NCBI GenBank assembly: GCA_965113315.1
Contig: OZ220363.1
Direction: 5' to 3' (one strand)
Length of the DNA stretch: 64,000 nucleotides
Origin: Podarcis vaucheri
Lineage: Eukaryota
Shown here: one piece after another, positions 3,342 to 42,887 of the stretch
Numbering within the stretch: the stretch's first letter is position 1
Layout of the letters: the number at the start of each line of letters is the position of its first letter
Translations under genes and position numbers: made by a program
The notes under the pieces: model-generated
The model's database searches: none
Told to the model about the DNA's origin: nothing
What the model saw: the letters and a program-made list of their open reading frames with translations, nothing else

Positions 3342-4555
3342 GAAATGCATTTTGCTCTTGCATTTGAGATACTGTACTGTATTCAACTGTACTGTGTATA
3401 ATTCAGGCCTTGCTTGTCCTTGGCGTACAGGAATTTTATGATATGATACTGTTCAATAGTCTAACATAAAAGTCTTCTTGTTACCTAATTTTTAGAAACC
3501 ATTCTGGGGGAATAAACATATAAGCACCTTTTAAGTTTTATTCATGATTCTGAAAGAAAATATTTCATAATCCACCCCACCCCCCATTTTGGGGGGAGAG
3601 GGAGACCTTGGAAAAAATGTGGGGAGGGGCCTTGAATTTCTTTTTTAGCTTTTCCCCACAGGTCTTCACATCTCTAATTCCAAGAAAAAACACAAATGAA
3701 CAGCAGATAAATTCATAATTTCAGCCGAGTCATATCACCTGAGAAAGCATCCCTGGAATTTTTAAAGAAGTACCTAAGAGGTTCAGGTAGTTTAGTCTCA
3801 CCCTAAGCATAATCATGTGCAGAGTCCAAACAAATGAATTATATTTGAGGTGGAAATAGTGACACATTCTACCACACACACAAAAATCAAGAACAGTGTA
3901 ACTGTTCATTAACTTTCATAGGGGTATATAGCAGTACTCCAATGTCATTCTACAAAACCGGAATAGGCATAGCTCCAGGATTGAAATGAACCCTGAAATA
4001 AATCAGCTTATTCCTGGAACTCAGTCCTTTTGATTAATTCCCCACCAAAATTATACCTTGATAATTAGAAAACTTAAAGCACAGAAAATTACTCTATTGT
4101 TCTACTCTGCATTAGGATATATTCTATAATTTTACAGATTTTTTTTTAAACCAGCATAACCTATCAGGTAGCAGAAAGTGCTGCAAAATAGCCACAATTC
4201 TGCTCTGAAACTGAAAATCATAGCTAGTTTCTAGTAATGTGTTAGCACATTTAGGAAGACTGTAATTAAACGATATGTTTATGATTCTTGGCAGGCAAGC
4301 ACCATCTTGTTAAATATCTTTAAATTCCAATATCTTGGTGGAGGCAGCATTTACTGTTTACTGCTGCTTTGGTTGTTAGGGGTTACCCACAAAGTTTTTG
4401 TTATTCCATGACATCAGCTGCATTCTGAGGGACGTGTGCCAGTGAATTTCACCACATTGAAAAAACAGCCAAGCTTGGCTGCACCTGCAGGCAGCTGAGC
4501 AGAGGAAAAACTGAAGTATACAGATTAAGTGGGATTTCTGATTTGGTTCCTAATG

Positions 4556-5075
4556 CAGTGTTTCCCAACCGGTGTTCCGCGGCACACTAGTGTGCCGTGA
4601 GACACCGGCTGGTGTGCCGTGGGAGGGAGGCGGGCGAGTCGGGCGGCGAGAGGCGGCGGCGGCGAGGATCCGCGTCGAGCCGGGGGCGGCTCCGCGGTGG
4701 TGGTGCCGAGCGGCGGGGCAGCGCGCGCAAAAGGGAGGAGCGCGAGACAGCGGAGGAGGAGGAGGCCGGCATGTCCGGGCAGCAGCAGCAACAGCAGCAG
4801 CAGCAACTCCCGGCGACGGCTCCTCCTCCGCCCGCTATCGCCGCCACCACCACAACAGCCACCGCCGCCTCAGCTGCCGCCGTCCCTCAGTCCCTCGCTC
4901 TGCTGCCTCCTCCCACCCCGGCAAGGGGAAGGGAAAAAACGTTCACTTTTGTGCGTCCCTCCCGGCGTGACGCTGCGCGCTGACGTCACGGGGCGGGGCT
5001 TTAATGGTGGTGTGCCGCGAGATTTTTTTCCGGTAAACAGGTGTGCCGTTGCCCAAAAACGTTTGGGAAACACTG
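4556..5075. mobile_element. Non-autonomous hAT element with GC/CpG-rich internal cargo
   Basis: 13-bp perfect TIR CAGTGTTTCCCAA, perfect 8-bp TSD tcctaatg (4548-4555, 5076-5083), subterminal gtgtgccg repeats. Confidence 0.92.
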
Positions 5076-5405
5076 TCCTAATGAATCAAAATTCCTCAGG
5101 TGGGAAGTGGAAGGAGCTTTTCTTCGGTTCTTTTCTTTCAATTCTCAAAACACAATTCTTGAATGCTCTGAAGTGATACACATCTGTCCAAAAGCAAAAT
5201 GCTTCCAGCATAACACTTTTTCTTTAAAGATTATTATTATTAAGACAAATCCCCAAATTTTAGTGTATTACACAAATCCGGGCATATTTTTTATGAAACC
5301 ATTTTCTAGCTGGGGTGGGTGGGAGAGACGACTCTTTGTGTAGTTCTTGCTTGCCTTGCTTTTATTATGTATTATTTTTGAAGATGAGCCAAGTCACACA
5401 TATTA

Positions 5406-29129: not shown

Positions 29130-29753
29130 TCATATTGACCTGAATATAAGCCACACCCGCAAATAAGCCACACGTTAAAAATTGAAGGTGGGGGGAGAAA
29201 AAAACCACAATACTAGGGCTGCTTCCTCAGGGGGAGCCAAACCTTCCCCCCTTCCCCCTTCTTTCCGGCAGCTCAGGAGAGGCTTGGGAGTGGCGGCCGG
29301 GCTGCGCGCCGTTGCCCCGCGTTCTGGGCTGCTCTCTGGGGGCAGGGTGAGAGCTACGCAGCTTTGCCAGCGGCCTCCCCCCTTCCTTAGACGGCTCAGG
29401 GAAGGCTTGGGAGTATCGGGTGGGCTGCACAACTCCCCCCCGCAAGAGCAGCCCGGGAGCACGAGGCAATGGCGCTCAGCCCGCCCACCGCTCCAAAGCC
29501 TCCCTCGAGCCGTCGGAGGGAAGTGGGTGGCCACAGGCAGAGTGGTGTGACTCCCCCTCTTCCCCCCTTCGTTCTGACAACTCAGGGGAGGCTTTGGAGT
29601 GGTGGCCAGCCACACTCCTGGGCTGCTTCCTGGGTGGGGGGAAGCCGCACCGCTTTGCCAGCGACATAAGGTCCCGAATATGAGACGCACTTTAACTTTT
29701 CACGATCAGAATTGGGGGCGGGGGAGTGTGTGGCTTATATTCAGGTCAATACC
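29130..29753. mobile_element. Tc2-type element with GC-rich repetitive interior
   Basis: ~23-bp TIR core tattgacctgaatataagccacac / gtgtggcttatattcaggtcaata; termini decayed. Confidence 0.82.
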
Positions 29754-33321: not shown

Positions 33322-36300
33322 TTAAAGTTCATATAACTTATAATACTTTTGCAAATAGTCCTTAAATTTTTTCCAGTCCTCCTCCATTGCTTCTTCTCCC
33401 ATATCTCGGATCCTGGCAGTCATCTCGGCTAGTTCCATGTAGTTCATCAATTGCGTCTGCCAATCTTCCAGTGTGGGCAAATCTTGAGTCTTCCAATGCT
33501 TAGCGATGAGAATTCTTGCTGCTGTGGTAGCATACATGAAAAAAGTTCTATCCTTCTTTAACACCTTCTGGCCGACAATGCCCAGAAGGAAGGCCTCCGG
33601 TTTCTTAGGGAAGGTGTACTTAAACACCTTTTTTAACTCGTTATAAATCATTTCCCAGAAGGCCTTCACTCTTGGACAAGTCCACCAAAGGTGAAAGAAT
33701 GTCCCCTCAGCCTCCTTACATTTCCAACATTTATTATCGGACAAATGGTATATCTTAGCCAGCTTGACCGGGGTCATGTACCACCTGTACACCATTTTCA
33801 TAATGTTTTCTTTCAGGGCATTACATGCGGTAAACTTCATACCGGTGGTCCATAACCTCTCCCAGTCTTCAGACATGATATTATAACCAATGTCCTGAGC
33901 CCATTTTATCATGGCTGATTTAACTGTCTCATCCTGAGTATTCCATTTAAGCAGCAAGTTATACATTCTCGATAATAACTTGGTCTTTGGTTCTAACAAC
34001 TCTGTCTCAAGTTTCGATTTTTCCACCTGGAATCCTATTTTTTTGTCTAGCTTAAAGACCTCATTAATTTGGGCATAATGAAGCCAATCTTGCACCTTAC
34101 CCTTTAGTTTTTCAAAGCTCTGCAACCTCCAATTATCTCCAATGTTTTCTATTATTTCCCAATATTTCGGCCAGCCGGCCTCCATATTAGGTTTTTTCCG
34201 AGCCTTGGCCTCTATTGGTGATACCCACCTCGGAGTTTTGCTTTCCAATAAGTCTTTGTATTTTTTCCAGACCATAAATATTGCTTTTCTGACAATATGG
34301 TTTTTAAACATTCCGTGTGTTTTTGCCTTGTCATACCACAAGTACGCATGCCAACCTAGCGAATTATTAAAGCCTTCCAGATCTAGGACATCAGTGTTTT
34401 CTAACAAAATCCAATCTTTCATCCAGCAGAAGGCCGCAGCTTCATAGTATAACCTTAAGTCTGGCAGGGCAAACCCCCCTCTCTCCTTTGCATCAGTTAG
34501 TATTTTAAACTTTATTCGGGGCTTTTTGCCCTGCCAGACAAATTTAGAAATATCCTTCTGCCACTTTCCAAAACATTCCACTCTGTCCACAATCTGCAAG
34601 GCTTGAAACAAAAACAACATTTTTGGCAAAACGTTCATTTTTACAGCTGCAATTCGGCCTAACAAGGATAGTTTCAGTCTTGACCAAATTTCTAGATCTT
34701 TTTTAACTTCTGACCAACATTTCTCATAATTATCTTTAAATAAATTCAAATTCTTAGAAGACAGATTGACCCCCAGGTATTTCACTTTTTTAACAATGTT
34801 TAGTTCTGTTTCCTTCTGAAACCCCTCTGTTTCAGTAGCTGTCAAGTTTTTCCCTAACACCTTAGTTTTTTGTTTGTTCAGCTTAAAACCCGCCACCCGA
34901 CTAAATTTCTGAATCAATTCCAAAACTCTTTTTGTACTAGATTCTGGCTCCTGTAATGTTAAGACCAAGTCATCTGCAAATGCTTTCAGTTTATATTGTT
35001 TCGCTCCGACCCGTATTCCTTGTAACTGCCGATCCTTCCTTATCATGTTCAGCAACACCTCCAGGACCGAAATAAATAATAGAGGGGATAGGGGGCACCC
35101 CTGTCGTGTTCCTTTTTCAATATTAAACCCTTCTGTCACCACATTGTTCACTATCAACTTAGCCTTTTGTTCTGAATAGATTGCTTCTATTCCATTCTCA
35201 AACCCCGTCCCACTCCCATCCCTTCCAAGTTTTTCTTCATAAACTTCCAAGAAATGTTATCAAAGGCATTCTCTGCATCAATAAATATTAGCACTGCTTT
35301 GGTATTGATATTTGTTTGCAACAGTTCCAAAATATCAATAATATTCCTGGTATTGTCAAACAAATGCCTGCCTGGGAGAAAGCCTGCTTGGTCCTTATGA
35401 ATTACTTCATTTAGTACTTTTTTAAATCTATTTGCCAAAATGTCTGCAAATATTTTGTAATCCACGTTTAGGAGTGAGATGGGGCGGTAGTTCTTAAGTT
35501 GAGTCTTTTCAGTTTCCACTTTAGGTATCAGTGTGATGAATGCTTCTTTCCACGTTTCTGGTGCCCTCCCTCCCCCCATGATCTGGTTGCAAACCTCCAT
35601 TAATGGTTGTATCAAGTAGTCTTTTAACGTCCTGTAGTACTTGGAGGTAAGTCCATCAGGGCCTGGAGATTTGCCTAACTGCATATTCTGAATGGCATCC
35701 TCAATTTCCTCTTGTGTTATTTTACAATTCAAGATTGATCTCTTCTCTTGAGATAGTTCTGGTAGGCCATTGTCTTTCAAGAATTGTTCTATCTCAGTCA
35801 CTTCCTCAGACCCTTGGGTGTACAGTTTTTTGAAGTATTTCTGGAAACACTTTCTAATTTCTCCCGGTTTCTGAATATTTTTCCCTTCAACTTCTAGGTT
35901 GGTAACATAATTTAATTTTTGTCTCTTTTTCAACTGCCAAGCTAGCAGTTTCCCACATTTATTCGCAGATTCAAAGGATCTTTGTTTCATTTGTTTAATT
36001 TTCCATTCCACTTCTTGGTTAATCAATTTCGTATATTGTGACTGGTGGAATTTAATTTCTCTTAAAGTCTCTTTTGATTTTGGATTCAATCTTAATTTTT
36101 TCTCTCCATCTCTTATCTTCTCTAATATCTTGTCCTTTTTCCCATTCCAAAGTTTTTTCTTAATCGTATTCTGTTGTATCAGAAACCCTCTCATAACAGC
36201 TTTACTTGCGTCCCAGATTATTCTTTTTTCCACCGAGGTGTTCAGGTTAATTTCAAAATAGTCCTTTAAAGCTTTTTGGGCCTTCTTTACAATCTCTTGA

Positions 36301-37061
36301 TCTCTTAACAGGTTGTCATTCATTTTCCATCTGAAGGAATCGGCAGTAGTAAATCTCATTTCCATTTTCAAAGCGTTGTGGTCGGAGCAGGTCTTTGGGC
36401 AGATTTCCACTCTTATAGTCTTAGGTGCCAGCCCTCTAGTTGTCCAAATTTGGTCGATTCTTATCCATGACAGGTGAGCCTCAGAGAAGAAAGTTCCTTC
36501 TTTAACTAAGGGGTTTCTCGTCCTCCATAAATCAATCAAATCCATATTGTCAGTTAGTTCGAAAAAAGTTTTTGGTAGTCTTCCATCTTTGGTCAAGTTC
36601 TGGTTCTGTGACTTATCCATATAGGTGGAGACCACCCCATTCATGTCTCCCATCATAATGATGTTGGAATAGTCCAGGTAGTCCAGTAATGTCTCATGTA
36701 GCTTCTTGTAGAATTCTGATTTCCCCTCATTTGGTGCGTAAATTCCTAGTATCAAAACATTTTCTCCTTGGGTTTGTATTTCAATTGCCAGGATTCTTCC
36801 TTGTTCGTCTTTAAACAAAAATTTTGGTAATAGATTCTCCTTTGCGTAGATCACCACGCCTCTCTTTTTAACTCTGTCTGATGAAATAAATTCTTGGCCT
36901 AATCTTTTGTTTATTAACACTTTCCTATGGAGCCTTGTCACATGAGTTTCTTGCAGACAGATTATATCCAAATGTTCTTTCTTCAAAATATGAAAAATCC
37001 TTTTGCGTTTTTCCGGGGAATTTGCGCCATTAATATTCCAACTGTATAGCTGCAGAGACAT
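33322..37061 (-). pseudogene. L1 ORF2p (APE endonuclease + reverse transcriptase + C-terminal Cys knuckle), split by one frameshift at ~35200-35206
   Basis: Endonuclease motifs SWNING, LQETH, IYAPN, GDMN, RIDQ, SDH. RT motifs KSPGPDG, YRPISLLNVDYK, DQAGF, DAENAFD, GTRQGCPLSPLLF, FADD, KYLG. C-terminal CWKC..HLWWTC. ORFs 35187-37061 and 33322-35250 join into 1246 aa if 1 nt is added. Confidence 0.95.
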
Positions 37062-37085
37062 CCTGTATCTGTCTGTTGTTGCTCT

Positions 37086-38132
37086 TTATGGGGCGTCTTC
37101 TTTTTTGTCCAAGTCCGAGGGTGCTGGTTCTTTTCCAGATTCTGGTGGAGGCCAAGGAACTGCTACTCCCTTCTGCAGGTCTTCTCCGTGGTCGTGTAGA
37201 AACTTCTGGCTGTCCTCTTTCGTTTTAATTTTAACCTTCTTTCCTTTGTAGTTGAATGATAGGCCTTGTGGAAACTCCCACCTGTAAGGTATCCCGTTAC
37301 TTCTCAAAAGTCCAGCTAGATCAGTGTAGTTAGATCTGAGATCCAGTAATTGTTTAGGGATATCCTTGTAAATTTCCGCTCTTCTGTCCTGGATCTCGAG
37401 TGCTTTATTGAAGTGTAGGTCAAGTAGTTTGTCTCTCTCCTGCTTGGTCCTTAAGATGATCAAACAGTCTCTGGGCCTGTCTTTCCTGGCGACTCTTCCC
37501 AATCTAAATGCGGTTGTTATTTTAAAGTCTGTATCTTCCTTTATGCCCCAGAATTTGGAGAATTCTGTTGTCAAAAAGCCGGTCAGATCCTCTTTCTCAA
37601 TCTCTGGGATGGAGCGTAATCTTAAATTATTTTCCCTGTTTTTCAGCTCCACCATAGACAGATAGGCCTGCTGGTCGCTGATATGTTTATGTAGTGGCCT
37701 TACCTCTCCTTTCAATTCGTCCACTTTCTGGATTGCTTGATCAGCTTTTTCGTTTGCAGCCTCGGCCAGTTTCCGATTCTCAGATGTAGCGTCCTTTAAA
37801 TTCCCAATTTCTTGTGAATGCTTAGCCACTTGTTCAGATAGTTTGGTGATTGAGGATGTGGCTAAGTCAATTTTTGCTGTTTGGTCATCAACCTTCTTAT
37901 TTAAAATTGCAAATTGTTGTAGCATTTCATCTAGAAGGGTGCCAGATCCCCCTGCTGCCATATCCTCAGTTGTTGGCTGTTCAGCTTCCTTGGATGGAGC
38001 TGTTGTTGAGGGTACAGCTCCCTGTAACACAGCAGGGACTGAAGATCTGCGAGACTGGGAAGTCAAAGTTGTTTGTACAAGTTGGCCTTTCCCTGCTTTC
38101 GACGCAGCTCTTGTTTTTGGAGGGCCACTCAT
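37086..38132 (-). CDS. L1 ORF1p (coiled coil + RRM/CTD nucleic-acid chaperone), 348 aa, intact
   Basis: ATG start, heptad-rich N-half, 'NRENNLRLRSIPE' (L1 RRxNLR-type motif), 'IYKDIP', 'YRWEFPQGL'; lies immediately upstream of ORF2. Confidence 0.92.
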   Translation of the reverse strand: MSGPPKTRAASKAGKGQLVQTTLTSQSRRSSVPAVLQGAVPSTTAPSKEAEQPTTEDMAAGGSGTLLDEMLQQFAILNKKVDDQTAKIDLATSSITKLSEQVAKHSQEIGNLKDATSENRKLAEAANEKADQAIQKVDELKGEVRPLHKHISDQQAYLSMVELKNRENNLRLRSIPEIEKEDLTGFLTTEFSKFWGIKEDTDFKITTAFRLGRVARKDRPRDCLIILRTKQERDKLLDLHFNKALEIQDRRAEIYKDIPKQLLDLRSNYTDLAGLLRSNGIPYRWEFPQGLSFNYKGKKVKIKTKEDSQKFLHDHGEDLQKGVAVPWPPPESGKEPAPSDLDKKEDAP

Positions 38133-40689
38133 TCCACACCTGTCTTTGGATTCAAGGTCAAACTGTCAAATGTTCCATGGGAAAGACCGGCCTCAAAGTA
38201 GATAACCAAACCGCAGAGAGTCAAAACAAAGTTAGTTCTCAGGAATTTGTAAATCCCAAACTCCACTAGAGGGAGTATTGTTACAGTTCAGGAAAGAAGG
38301 AATAAAGTTTTGGTCGCCATTAAAGTTCCTGCAGCTGAATAAGTTAACAATAATCCTTAAAAACTTTTTTCCACTTGCAGAGCCCTTTCAATGTTACCAC
38401 GATAGTCCCATCTGAAGGTGCAAGATACAGTTGCTTAATTGTATCTTCCAATAATGCCTCTATGTATCCATTTCAACTTTATAAATGTATCCGCAAAGCA
38501 ACCCTTTTCCCCCTGCCGGTCCGGGACTGGGTTTTTTAAAGTTTTTAGAATCCACAAGAGGAGAAGGTCTCCAAGTTAAATCAACACAGTAACATAGTGA
38601 AAAAAGAAGGCTTGCCTTTCCTTTCAGTTGCTAGCTCCGCCAGACGCATGATACTTCCCGTTTTAAAATCCCTTTCAATTGCTCCCAGCTTGTCTGTTCC
38701 TTTGCCTTTGATCTCTAAGCGCTACCGGGAGACGGACTTCCTTTTTCTCGTCTCTCGCTTTCAGCCAAATTTCCAATTTGCAGTTCCAAATTAAAACCCT
38801 TCTTACTCACGAGTAGGTGGTTTAGAGTCCAATGCTTAAGGAAGAAAGGTCGGCGCTCATCAGCAACAGCCGCGCGGCTTCGCTCCCGCAGAAAGAGCGA
38901 TGTACTCTCAGCACCGCTTCCCCTCCGCGCTTCCGGAGCCCCTTACGGGGTCCCTTCTTCGTTTTGGGGGTCGCTCCAGGTGCCCGCCGAGTCCCACGGC
39001 CACGAGCTCACTCTGCTCGTGGTTTTTCTTGGTGGATCGTCGCTGTGCCGTAGCGAACGATCCTTTCCTGCGGAGCCCCTCTTCAGAGACTGAAGAGGAC
39101 CGCCATTGCCCGTTTCGCGCCGCCTCCGGAAACTTAGGGAGCCTAGCTGAAGCCCTGCTACCCAACTGCTAAGGCGTAGCAAGCCTGGGAAAGGTGAAGT
39201 ACTCATCCAGGGAGTACCTCAGCAGCCAGCTCCAGCTACCGGCTTGTTGCAGGCGATTGATAGTGACTCTCCTCTTTCCCTTCCTCAGAGAACCACTGAT
39301 CTGCTCTTCTTCAATGAATAATTGTAAAGTCATACTACTTCTTTACTGATGAACATGGGGTTGTTCCCTATGAGCATTTGGTAAGACCTTTCAAGACTGA
39401 AATCTGAGCACATCTCCCTTCCAAAATGAAATGTGATAAAAACAATCCAACTGTGACTAAAATAAGAACAAAATACAAGAAAAACTCAATCCTTCTACAT
39501 TTTAAAATATATTAGGTGAATCTTTTTTAAATCTCCCTGGGGCTTTAAATATTTGAGGATTTAATTGAGCGGATGCACAAAAATTTAAGGAAAACGGTTC
39601 TGTGGTGTTTCTCAAGCTCCCCTGGCACCAGATGGGGAACTCTTTTTACAGTTCATCTACCTTAAATAGGAAGCATTGGTTGCCTAACTACTTACCCACT
39701 TTATGTTTATATTTCAGTTTCACAGGATTCATTGTAGAAATAGGATACTTTAGTGACCAATTCATTTGAAATGTCTGCCAGAGCCATTTTTATAACATAA
39801 GGTTTACTTCCCCCCCAGGGTACTTGTTTGCCCAGAGATAATTCTCCTGTCTCAAAAAGATAATGTTACTTAACCCCACTTTTTAGCTAGAGTGGCTTCC
39901 CATGAAGCAGAAAGAAATTACAATGGTTCAAAATAATTTAAAGCGGAACAACACTGAAAAGTACTAAGAGTTCTTTTTCCCAACATGGAAATTTGCTGAA
40001 CTATGCACATACTGCCAATAGACATTCATGCTCGCATGCACATGTTGTCATGCACATGCATGCTTTCAAACAGAGATTAAATTTGGTACCCCAACCCCCC
40101 CCCCAATAGCAATGACTCTGAGTTATCCTCATCCAGATACCTGCCCTGTCATAACTGGAGGAGATGGGTACTGAGAATGCCATTTTCCAGTGATTCAGTT
40201 CCTATCTGGCTGACTAGTTTTAGAACATTTTACAAGGGGGCCACTTTTTTCCTCCTTGGCTTGTATACTACGGAGTTCTGCAAGCTTCCCTAATGTCCTC
40301 CATGCTATCTAACATGAAAATGGAAGAGTGTGTCCAGAGATTGAGGGTGAAATGTCACCACAGCTGTCTCTTTCAATTCCATCTACTTCAAGTGAGGCTG
40401 CTGAGGTCCTAAACAGTTGTCAGAAATCATTAATGGGAAGGGTGGAGGGGCAATAAACTGAAGCTCAATCCGGAGAAGAGAGGCACCATTAGATGGTGAT
40501 ATAGTTGACAAAGGAATTGGAGTTCAACCCATTCTAAATCAGGGTCACATTACCCATGAAATACTAGGTTTGAATCTATTTCTTTAGAGGGGTAGTAATA
40601 GTCAGCTTTGTGGATAACTGATCAGATATCTTTGGTGGTCCGTAGCAGTTATCAGCTGCTGCCGATTCTCCATATGTGGCTACTCTTGA

Positions 40690-42697: not shown

Positions 42698-42887
42698 CAG
42701 GGGTTCCCAAGTGGAGGTCTGCAATCTACATTTGGATGGGCCATGCTGTGTTTATAAAAATACAATTAAAAATCACACTGTATGTCACATGGTATGCTTG
42801 CTACTACCAGCAGAAAAAGTATTAAGTGATCTACCAAGACCCTCAACTATTTTCACATGGTGGGAGGGGAGAATTTGGGAACCACTG
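42698..42887. mobile_element. hAT MITE
   Basis: caggggttcccaa / ttgggaaccactg; perfect 8-bp TSD ctatacac. Confidence 0.88.

Follow-up and report, generated by a model that had tools for sequence, protein, structure and literature searches.

The window analysed here is a stretch of 64,000 nucleotides from Podarcis vaucheri. At positions 4556–5075 it holds a 520-bp element that is a young, non-autonomous hAT transposon of the Buster/Charlie type, and whose interior is pieced together from the 5' ends of host genes as follows.

4548–4555, plus strand: left target-site duplication (TSD) TCCTAATG (nnnTAnnn), unduplicated at the empty site of X2 and X8
4556–4621, plus strand: left end, with a 13-bp terminal inverted repeat (TIR; 4556–4568) and subterminal GTGTGCCG repeats; matches the left end of the autonomous copies L158–L161
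4622–4668, plus strand: GC-rich block in common with the leader of autonomous elements (element 1–113 versus autonomous 1–118, 85–88%)
4658–4746, minus strand: TCF20 5' CpG island in two pieces, CCAAT-side promoter and likely 5'UTR, 81 bp missing between them (element 103–155 at 98% and 155–207 at 92% versus the TIR-free locus L191, C29:42.800 Mb)
4746–4876, plus strand: RANBP9 exon 1 remnant with 25 bp of 5'UTR, the ATG at 4771, polyQ and polyP/A/T, internal deletions in frame (element 191–270 and 254–321, corresponding to L127:3353–3423 and 3515–3582)
4771–4983, plus strand: predicted chimeric 70-aa frame, in which RANBP9 gives 35 residues and non-coding modules the rest
4877–4892, no strand: junction filler (5 bp) and the final bases of a module that is complete in the 1.26-kb form (deletion-series comparison)
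4893–4994, minus strand: TFDP1 5' CpG island in two pieces, with a CRE-like TGACGTCA block (element 338–364 and 365–439 versus the TIR-free locus L428:993–1019 and 1203–1285, C18:81.751 Mb)
5002–5075, plus strand: right end, with subterminal repeats and TIR (5063–5075); element 447–520 versus autonomous 3909–3981, 89%
5076–5083, plus strand: right TSD TCCTAATG, identical to 4548–4555

The original prediction had described a young hAT element with perfect TIRs and a perfect 8-bp TSD around a GC- and CpG-rich interior in an AT-rich background. The TSD, TCCTAATG on both sides, and the youth of the element are borne out, as is the composition: the interior (4620–4995) has a GC content of 73% and a CpG observed/expected ratio of 1.0, versus 40.6% and 0.35 for the whole window. 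The TIRs are perfect over the 13-bp tip (CAGTGTTTCCCAA; 15 of the first 16 positions match) and imperfect further in. In DNA runs from two related species (X2 and X8), the orthologous site is empty and carries a single copy of the TSD, the skip of 528 nucleotides equaling 520 plus 8, and the flanks differ from the window at 7 (X2) and 18 (X8) letters in about 817; X1 contigs break at the element. Because the site is empty in both species, the insertion is younger than the splits from X2 and X8. The ATG at 4771 and the 70-aa frame read as claimed. A Pfam search with this chimeric frame gave no match, the three matches in an Rfam scan all fell far under gathering scores, and the sole match in a homolog search with the window's 95-aa frame was a Podarcis gene model. 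Elsewhere in the window lie a nearly full-length LINE on the minus strand (33322–38165; ORF1 of 359 aa, ORF2 in two frames), a TIR-bounded element with ends ATTGACCTGAATATAAGCCAC and a GC-rich interior, possibly Pack-type and of a different superfamily (29130–29750), and a 190-bp hAT MITE that belongs to another family and has the TSD CTATACAC (42698–42887).

The element belongs to a large family. The junction specific to the 520-bp form occurs 398 times in its own genome (reversed control, 0), and all 40 candidates scored, out of 1,731, were full-length copies. Each copy has its own perfect 8-bp TSD in 29 of the 30 best copies and in 30 of 30 taken by position, and the first 30 by position lie on average 0.54% from their majority sequence. 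A 25-mer around the RANBP9 start is found at 971 genomic positions, the host locus among them, and right ends of the family number at least 4,151. The members examined fall into 18 structural classes with common ends and unlike interiors. Short TIRs with subterminal repeats are a hAT feature, and both, the latter in the form of GTGTGCCG repeats, are present in the 520-bp element. Among 94 unique TSD-bounded elements, position 4 of the target is T in all and position 5 is A in 93; an 8-bp nnnTAnnn target is that of TcBuster and the signature of the Buster/Charlie group (PMC3499496). In 30 position-ordered family members, an island-like 200-bp stretch lies inside 27 of the 28 interiors that could be delimited, which stem from few captures. 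Outside the elements such a stretch occurs in 5 of 60 outer flanks versus 10 of 63 window tiles, so CpG-island enrichment at present insertion sites was not found in this comparison.

Three further observations concern the family at large. Its commonest class (L032-type, 11 of the 30 position-ordered members) is 1.4 kb long; the island in it includes a donor and a short exon with an ATG. The G variant that the window subfamily has at 4941 is frequent in X1 and in X2 and nearly absent from X8. In X23 RNA, 10 reads link an element right end to a left end over a target-like spacer, joins that resemble a head-to-tail dimer within a transcribed locus.

The coding cargo comes from RANBP9. Host exon 1 lies at G000:C27:33,787,353-582 with exon 2 in place about 5.4 kb on, the family TIR is absent from 40 kb around it, and RNA covers exons 1 and 2, mainly in one direction. 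As the original prediction had anticipated, the 5' end of a gene supplies a source without TIRs, alongside hundreds of TIR-flanked copies. Longer relatives, recovered by exclusion and anchor patterns, form with the window element a deletion series of 1.26, 0.73, 0.55 and 0.52 kb, in which the window form is the shortest and the 1.26-kb form holds the complete RANBP9 exon 1 plus donor. The 149-codon frame of the latter, running up to the GT donor, matches RANBP9 in the PDB (7nsc, E 4e-36) and agrees at 97% with Podarcis lilfordi RANBP9, whose N terminus is the originally predicted peptide with its deleted parts restored. The best protein matches come from Podarcis and Lacerta and mark the genome as that of a lacertid. 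In one such copy (L078), positions 277–903 correspond to host L127:3353–3953 at 92.6%, with the donor and 145 bp of intron retained. Since donor and intron 1 sequence are still present in the 1.26-kb forms, the capture took place at the DNA level and is not a retrocopy. Related forms also include RANBP9 promoter DNA, from L127:2793 onward; single-copy contigs end at 2793 in X2 and begin at 3952 in X8 (L127 numbering), and these stops and starts confirm both boundaries of the capture in other species. Cargo and host differ by 2.2–3.2% substitutions and the 1.26-kb copies differ pairwise by 2.3–2.6%, similar distances that place the capture shortly before the burst of the 1.26-kb form. Five of the six deletion junctions show microhomology of 1–6 bp, and one has a 5-bp filler. 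The element in the window did not make the capture, as had been proposed, but is a late deletion derivative of older composites.

The source of the module that follows RANBP9 intron 1 was found neither by search nor in 40 kb around RANBP9. A CTLH family search did not have RANBP9 among its matches, and exclusion patterns for the RANBP9 source returned nothing or element variants only; two candidates, L057 and L184, were rejected as host sources, both being TIR-flanked elements. A 3.6-kb stretch of the host RANBP9 upstream region (G000:C27:33,783,162-33,786,791) is missing from the cargo, either lost from the element by deletion or inserted afterwards in the host.

A host-gene 5' end has thus been captured, as predicted, although three genes contributed and not one. 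The TCF20 and TFDP1 pieces run antisense to the RANBP9 part, which accounts for the 5'UTR-like appearance of the minus strand noted in the original prediction. The island at C29:42.800 Mb is TIR-free and includes a donor as well as a CCAAT motif; TCF20's large exon is 7 kb away, with the island on its 5' side. From the island at C18:81.751 Mb, exons of DP-1 (TFDP1) lie 12–22 kb away on the minus strand, the nearest coding exon found being at 12 kb; on the minus strand, the TFDP1 part of the element resembles a short exon, with a donor that in the window subfamily is degenerate. Position, orientation and donor motif suggest that both islands are working promoters, and their motifs are ones we take to be CRE, CCAAT, NRF1 and ETS sites. 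Elements of the L184 type have their first 277 bp in common with the 1.26-kb form and then continue into TCF20 DNA, and this comparison shows the 1.26-kb form to be a recombinant, its first 277 bp coming from a TCF20-carrying element. The mosaic pieces of the window interior are 27–83 bp long and match the host at 86–98%; no host source matched about 47 bp (4622–4668) and 16 bp (4877–4892). Two other elements (L387 and L393) join the TCF20 island to 27 bp of RANBP9 upstream DNA and to a further first coding exon with a donor.

Other members of the family carry other cargos. Further TIR-free sources lie at C26:36.52 Mb, a first exon, and at C26:20.795 Mb, a promoter. Three more are a coding piece of a CDK5 activator (presumably the paralogue CDK5R2), L308, an exon-like stretch that includes intron, and L165, AT-rich DNA of 1.1 kb. 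Six of the eight traced sources are CpG-island genes, L165 and L308 not being promoter islands, in a set chosen by the look of the cargo and hence not an unbiased rate. A subfamily of about 120 copies (L046, L258–L287) carries in reverse the first exon of a SIX-domain gene, which has a weak Pfam match and which we take to be SIX5; its source was not reached among the 40 of 121 candidates scored, all 30 sequences fetched being TIR-flanked. Likewise, for the L034 cargo all 12 fetched were TIR-flanked, and no source turned up when 40 of the 86 candidates were scored. Within the RANBP9 cargo of L064 and L080 (element 600–1750) is nested a second hAT family with ends CAGTGGCGTAGCG and an 8-bp TSD, which carries a transglutaminase exon with donor and is possibly a second Pack-hAT family.

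Autonomous partners, reached through a pattern in their AT-rich 3' region, are 3.9–4.6 kb long and have both ends in common with the 520-bp element. A search with the 5' part of the transposase frame gave 14 full-length matches (L158–L161 and L444–L453; 40 of 80 candidates scored), eight of which hold an uninterrupted frame of 626–627 aa (for example G000:C19:96,953,756-96,957,736). The transposase is of the ZBED5/FAM200 type (ZBED5/FAM200/GTF2IRD2 clusters of the atlas, 0.97–0.98); local Pfam gave only zf-C2H2_12, under its cut-off, and a PDB search gave no match. In all 14 copies the leader is a host-derived composite, of two types. Ahead of the frame, each contains some 210 bp from the TFDP1 island, including an acceptor-like motif, and before that stand an inner left end and DNA of L165. 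In three copies the outer leader consists of more TFDP1 island and in 11 of other host DNA, including L308; eight copies have the CDK5-activator piece there. Older deletion derivatives and MITEs (L432–L441), whose TIR differs slightly (CAGTGTTTTTCAA), keep a different leader, which is probably the native one. About 130 bp of native leader remain ahead of the transposase ATG, and for this reason expression of the transposase from captured DNA is no more than a possibility.

These leaders bear on the counter-reading named in the original prediction, that the interior is simply the leader of an autonomous hAT, shortened by deletion. Positions 1–113 of the element and the 18-bp CRE-like block do match the autonomous leader, and the older relatives, whose TIR is CAGTGTTTTTCAA, arose by ordinary deletion. 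Yet in four autonomous copies only 1–113, 422–439 and 447–520 are held in common, and 114–421 is unmatched apart from L160, which also matches the TFDP1-derived part by way of a nested element. Moreover, the pieces match single TIR-free host loci, and the RANBP9 source by itself largely refutes the reading. What stands of it is confined to about 47 bp (4622–4668) and the CRE-like block, and the autonomous leader that these match is itself largely host DNA, the 18-bp block tracing to the TFDP1 island. We regard this explanation as extremely improbable.

How, then, was host DNA taken up? In our reading, a young Buster/Charlie hAT with a RANBP9/TCF20/TFDP1 mosaic interior was likely moved by the 626-aa transposase, and its cargo was likely caught by insertion beside promoters; as a whole we consider this probable. 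What is observed comprises its TIRs and TSDs, how many copies there are, the three sources free of TIRs, the series of deletions and the intact 4-kb partners with matching ends, and the steps that connect all this would run as follows. A family copy would insert at a TA-centred site near a promoter, which for RANBP9 would be the one 4.3 kb upstream of the ATG where the capture starts. A pair of ends spanning the flank, or repair that copies past the inner end, would then take in the adjoining host DNA, so that capture would amount to local re-insertion with use of an outer end or to repair synthesis through the inner end. Template switching at short homologies would have joined the TCF20-carrying left arm to the RANBP9/TFDP1 arm, microhomology deletions would have taken the composite down from 1.26 kb to 0.52 kb, and intact transposase would have amplified every shorter form in trans.

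The junctions give this reading its footing. In all, 110 elements open with a 118-bp unit that combines the left end with a right terminus of 23 bp. The 8-mer after this inner terminus falls into five independent classes, all TA-centred, a few copies having small deletions. Three of the five were traced, and in each the host source begins at that 8-mer, which is present there once; the two further classes are likewise TA-centred. Counting every traced case, host DNA meets an internal terminus at a TA-centred 8-mer that is unique in its TIR-free source in four of four:

ACTTAAGT: RANBP9 upstream at C27:33,783,054, 4.3 kb from the ATG; exact
CCCTAGGC: C26:20.795 Mb; exact
CTCTAATC: autonomous copies, where L165 DNA (C19:44,905,963-970 at the 8-mer) ends against the inner left end; exact
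CTCTAACA: C26:36.52 Mb; one mismatch, at the A

Two later captures placed new DNA between the inner terminus and the old cargo, rejoining within 2–3 bp of the old target. Alternatively, template switching during gap repair or replication (gap filling or FoSTeST) might account for the entry of every host piece, without any insertion beside a source, and transposition would have served only to amplify the products. Such a model has been put forward for multicopy animal Pack-TIRs in the available text of one survey (PMC8277862), and much here is compatible with it: microhomologies at most deletion and switch junctions, and TCF20 and TFDP1 junctions in the window element that have no target 8-mer and fit plain template switching. 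Nor do we find a family element beside any traced source today. The absence of a free-standing 118-bp mini-element with its own TSD among 30, the far junction of L381, which has templated filler and no clear host target, and the lack of island preference all count against insertion-led capture. Template switching alone nevertheless leaves unexplained why an intact terminus should meet a once-only TA-centred 8-mer in four of four traced cases, and why two later captures should rejoin within 2–3 bp of the inner cut site, and we think it rather unlikely as the whole account. Capture of flanks beside insertions, as proposed for plant Pack-TYPE elements, is what we infer for these junctions, and insertion-led capture and template switching were likely both at work.

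Whether the copies do anything for the host is a separate matter. Across copies, CpG transitions number 41 in 3,720 site-copies versus 12 in 6,990 at other C/G positions (6.5-fold, p 4e-10), with three recurrent changes, each in three copies, left out of the count. This decay points to probable germ-line methylation, and the youth of the copies explains why intact CpGs survive. The original prediction had allowed that the insertion was either very recent or unmethylated; the first stands, whereas the second is disfavoured because of the 6.5-fold enrichment. One RNA run, from a species without the window copy, has 644 reads on the element, on both strands; 78% continue into unlike flanks, and no pile-up of starts is listed.

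It is conceivable that copies are kept as a mobile promoter or mini-exon (RANBP9 ATG and polyQ, CRE-like block) and exapted in host transcripts. Both deletions within the RANBP9 coding part (87 and 21 bp) are in frame, and 27 of 30 copies keep the frame; in-frame deletions are, however, expected in triplet runs, and frameshifts and stops are present among the 1.26-kb copies (L066, L088). An automated Podarcis muralis model (P0001) holds a RANBP9-derived stretch between Kunitz domains. Reads do fall on both strands of the element, yet the run-on fraction and the lack of a listed start pile-up look like what read-through from numerous copies would give, the species that supplied the RNA has no insertion at the window site, and CpG decay indicates methylation. 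We judge exaptation very unlikely; most likely, on these counts and reads, the copies are methylated passengers and not working promoters. The Kunitz-domain model with its RANBP9-derived peptide may reflect exonisation or an annotation error.

A bolder possibility, which we advance only tentatively and consider doubtful, is that this hAT lineage exchanged its own leader for promoter DNA captured from the host (in 14 of 14 transposase copies, the TFDP1 island in divergent direction, plus host splice donors). It might now serve as a serial shuttle of promoters and first exons by way of its internal termini, spreading chimeric gene starts by the thousand, of which some could fire or splice into host genes. 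More immediately, the copies look like CpG islands and first exons, and in lacertids they can lead gene models astray, along with studies of promoters or methylation.

Gene capture by TIR transposons of animals is rare and nearly always single-copy, and its mechanism is still argued, according to the available text of the survey of animal Pack-TIRs, which counts 370 in 100 genomes, four of them multicopy and none in Anolis (PMC8277862). A search of its supplement found no Podarcis entry. One case that it describes is the frog Pack-hAT-N8_XT, with a CAPSL 5'UTR cargo in three copies. As in those elements, TIRs of a hAT enclose host DNA from a gene 5' end, copies have distinct TSDs, and TIR-free parents exist; unlike them, as far as that text goes, one cargo here is found at 971 places, the interior is a multi-gene mosaic, and partners with intact transposase are present. 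Both termini flank a non-TE interior with unique TIR-free parents (RANBP9, TCF20 and TFDP1), and the element is a genuine Pack-hAT. A mosaic does not pass the filter given in the survey (one parent at 90% or more, interior 80–120% of the parent length; PMC8277862), and because that is a filter for detection, mosaics would be missed by the survey without being excluded from the Pack-TIR concept. In the literature searched we found no report of this lizard family; Repbase or Dfam consensus entries may exist.

Helitrons move by a rolling-circle mechanism and have neither TIRs nor TSDs. In bats, HelibatN3 contains NUBPL's promoter, its 5'UTR, exon 1 and some of intron 1 in about 1,000 copies, and the published account consulted (PMC4224331) describes, as we do here, an amplified gene 5' end, a bias toward promoters and first exons, and serial capture. 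Amplified gene starts are therefore already known in animals, from another class of element; the lizard element, in contrast, is a cut-and-paste hAT with 8-bp TSDs and TIRs, and internal termini mark its captures.

Among plants, rice Pack-MULEs have a GC-rich 5' bias. Plant Pack-TYPE elements, including Pack-hAT and Pack-CACTA, likewise have many copies drawn from several source loci, and the route proposed for them in the available part of a preprint is the mobilisation of neighbouring insertions as one unit (bioRxiv 10.1101/2021.06.18.448592). The lizard system differs in its vertebrate host, its CpG-island cargo, and inner termini with 8-mers that can be read against empty sources. With TcBuster it has in common the nnnTAnnn 8-bp target and a ZBED5/FAM200-like transposase. 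TcBuster in human cells favours transcription starts and, weakly, CpG islands, and the available text mentions no gene capture by it (PMC3499496); the lizard family has captured genes and shows no island enrichment. It has amplified gene 5' ends to plant-like numbers, with 971 RANBP9 starts and at least 4,151 elements, and because transposases, intermediates and empty sources are all retained, the neighbouring-insertion and template-switch models can be tested against each other junction by junction and in culture.
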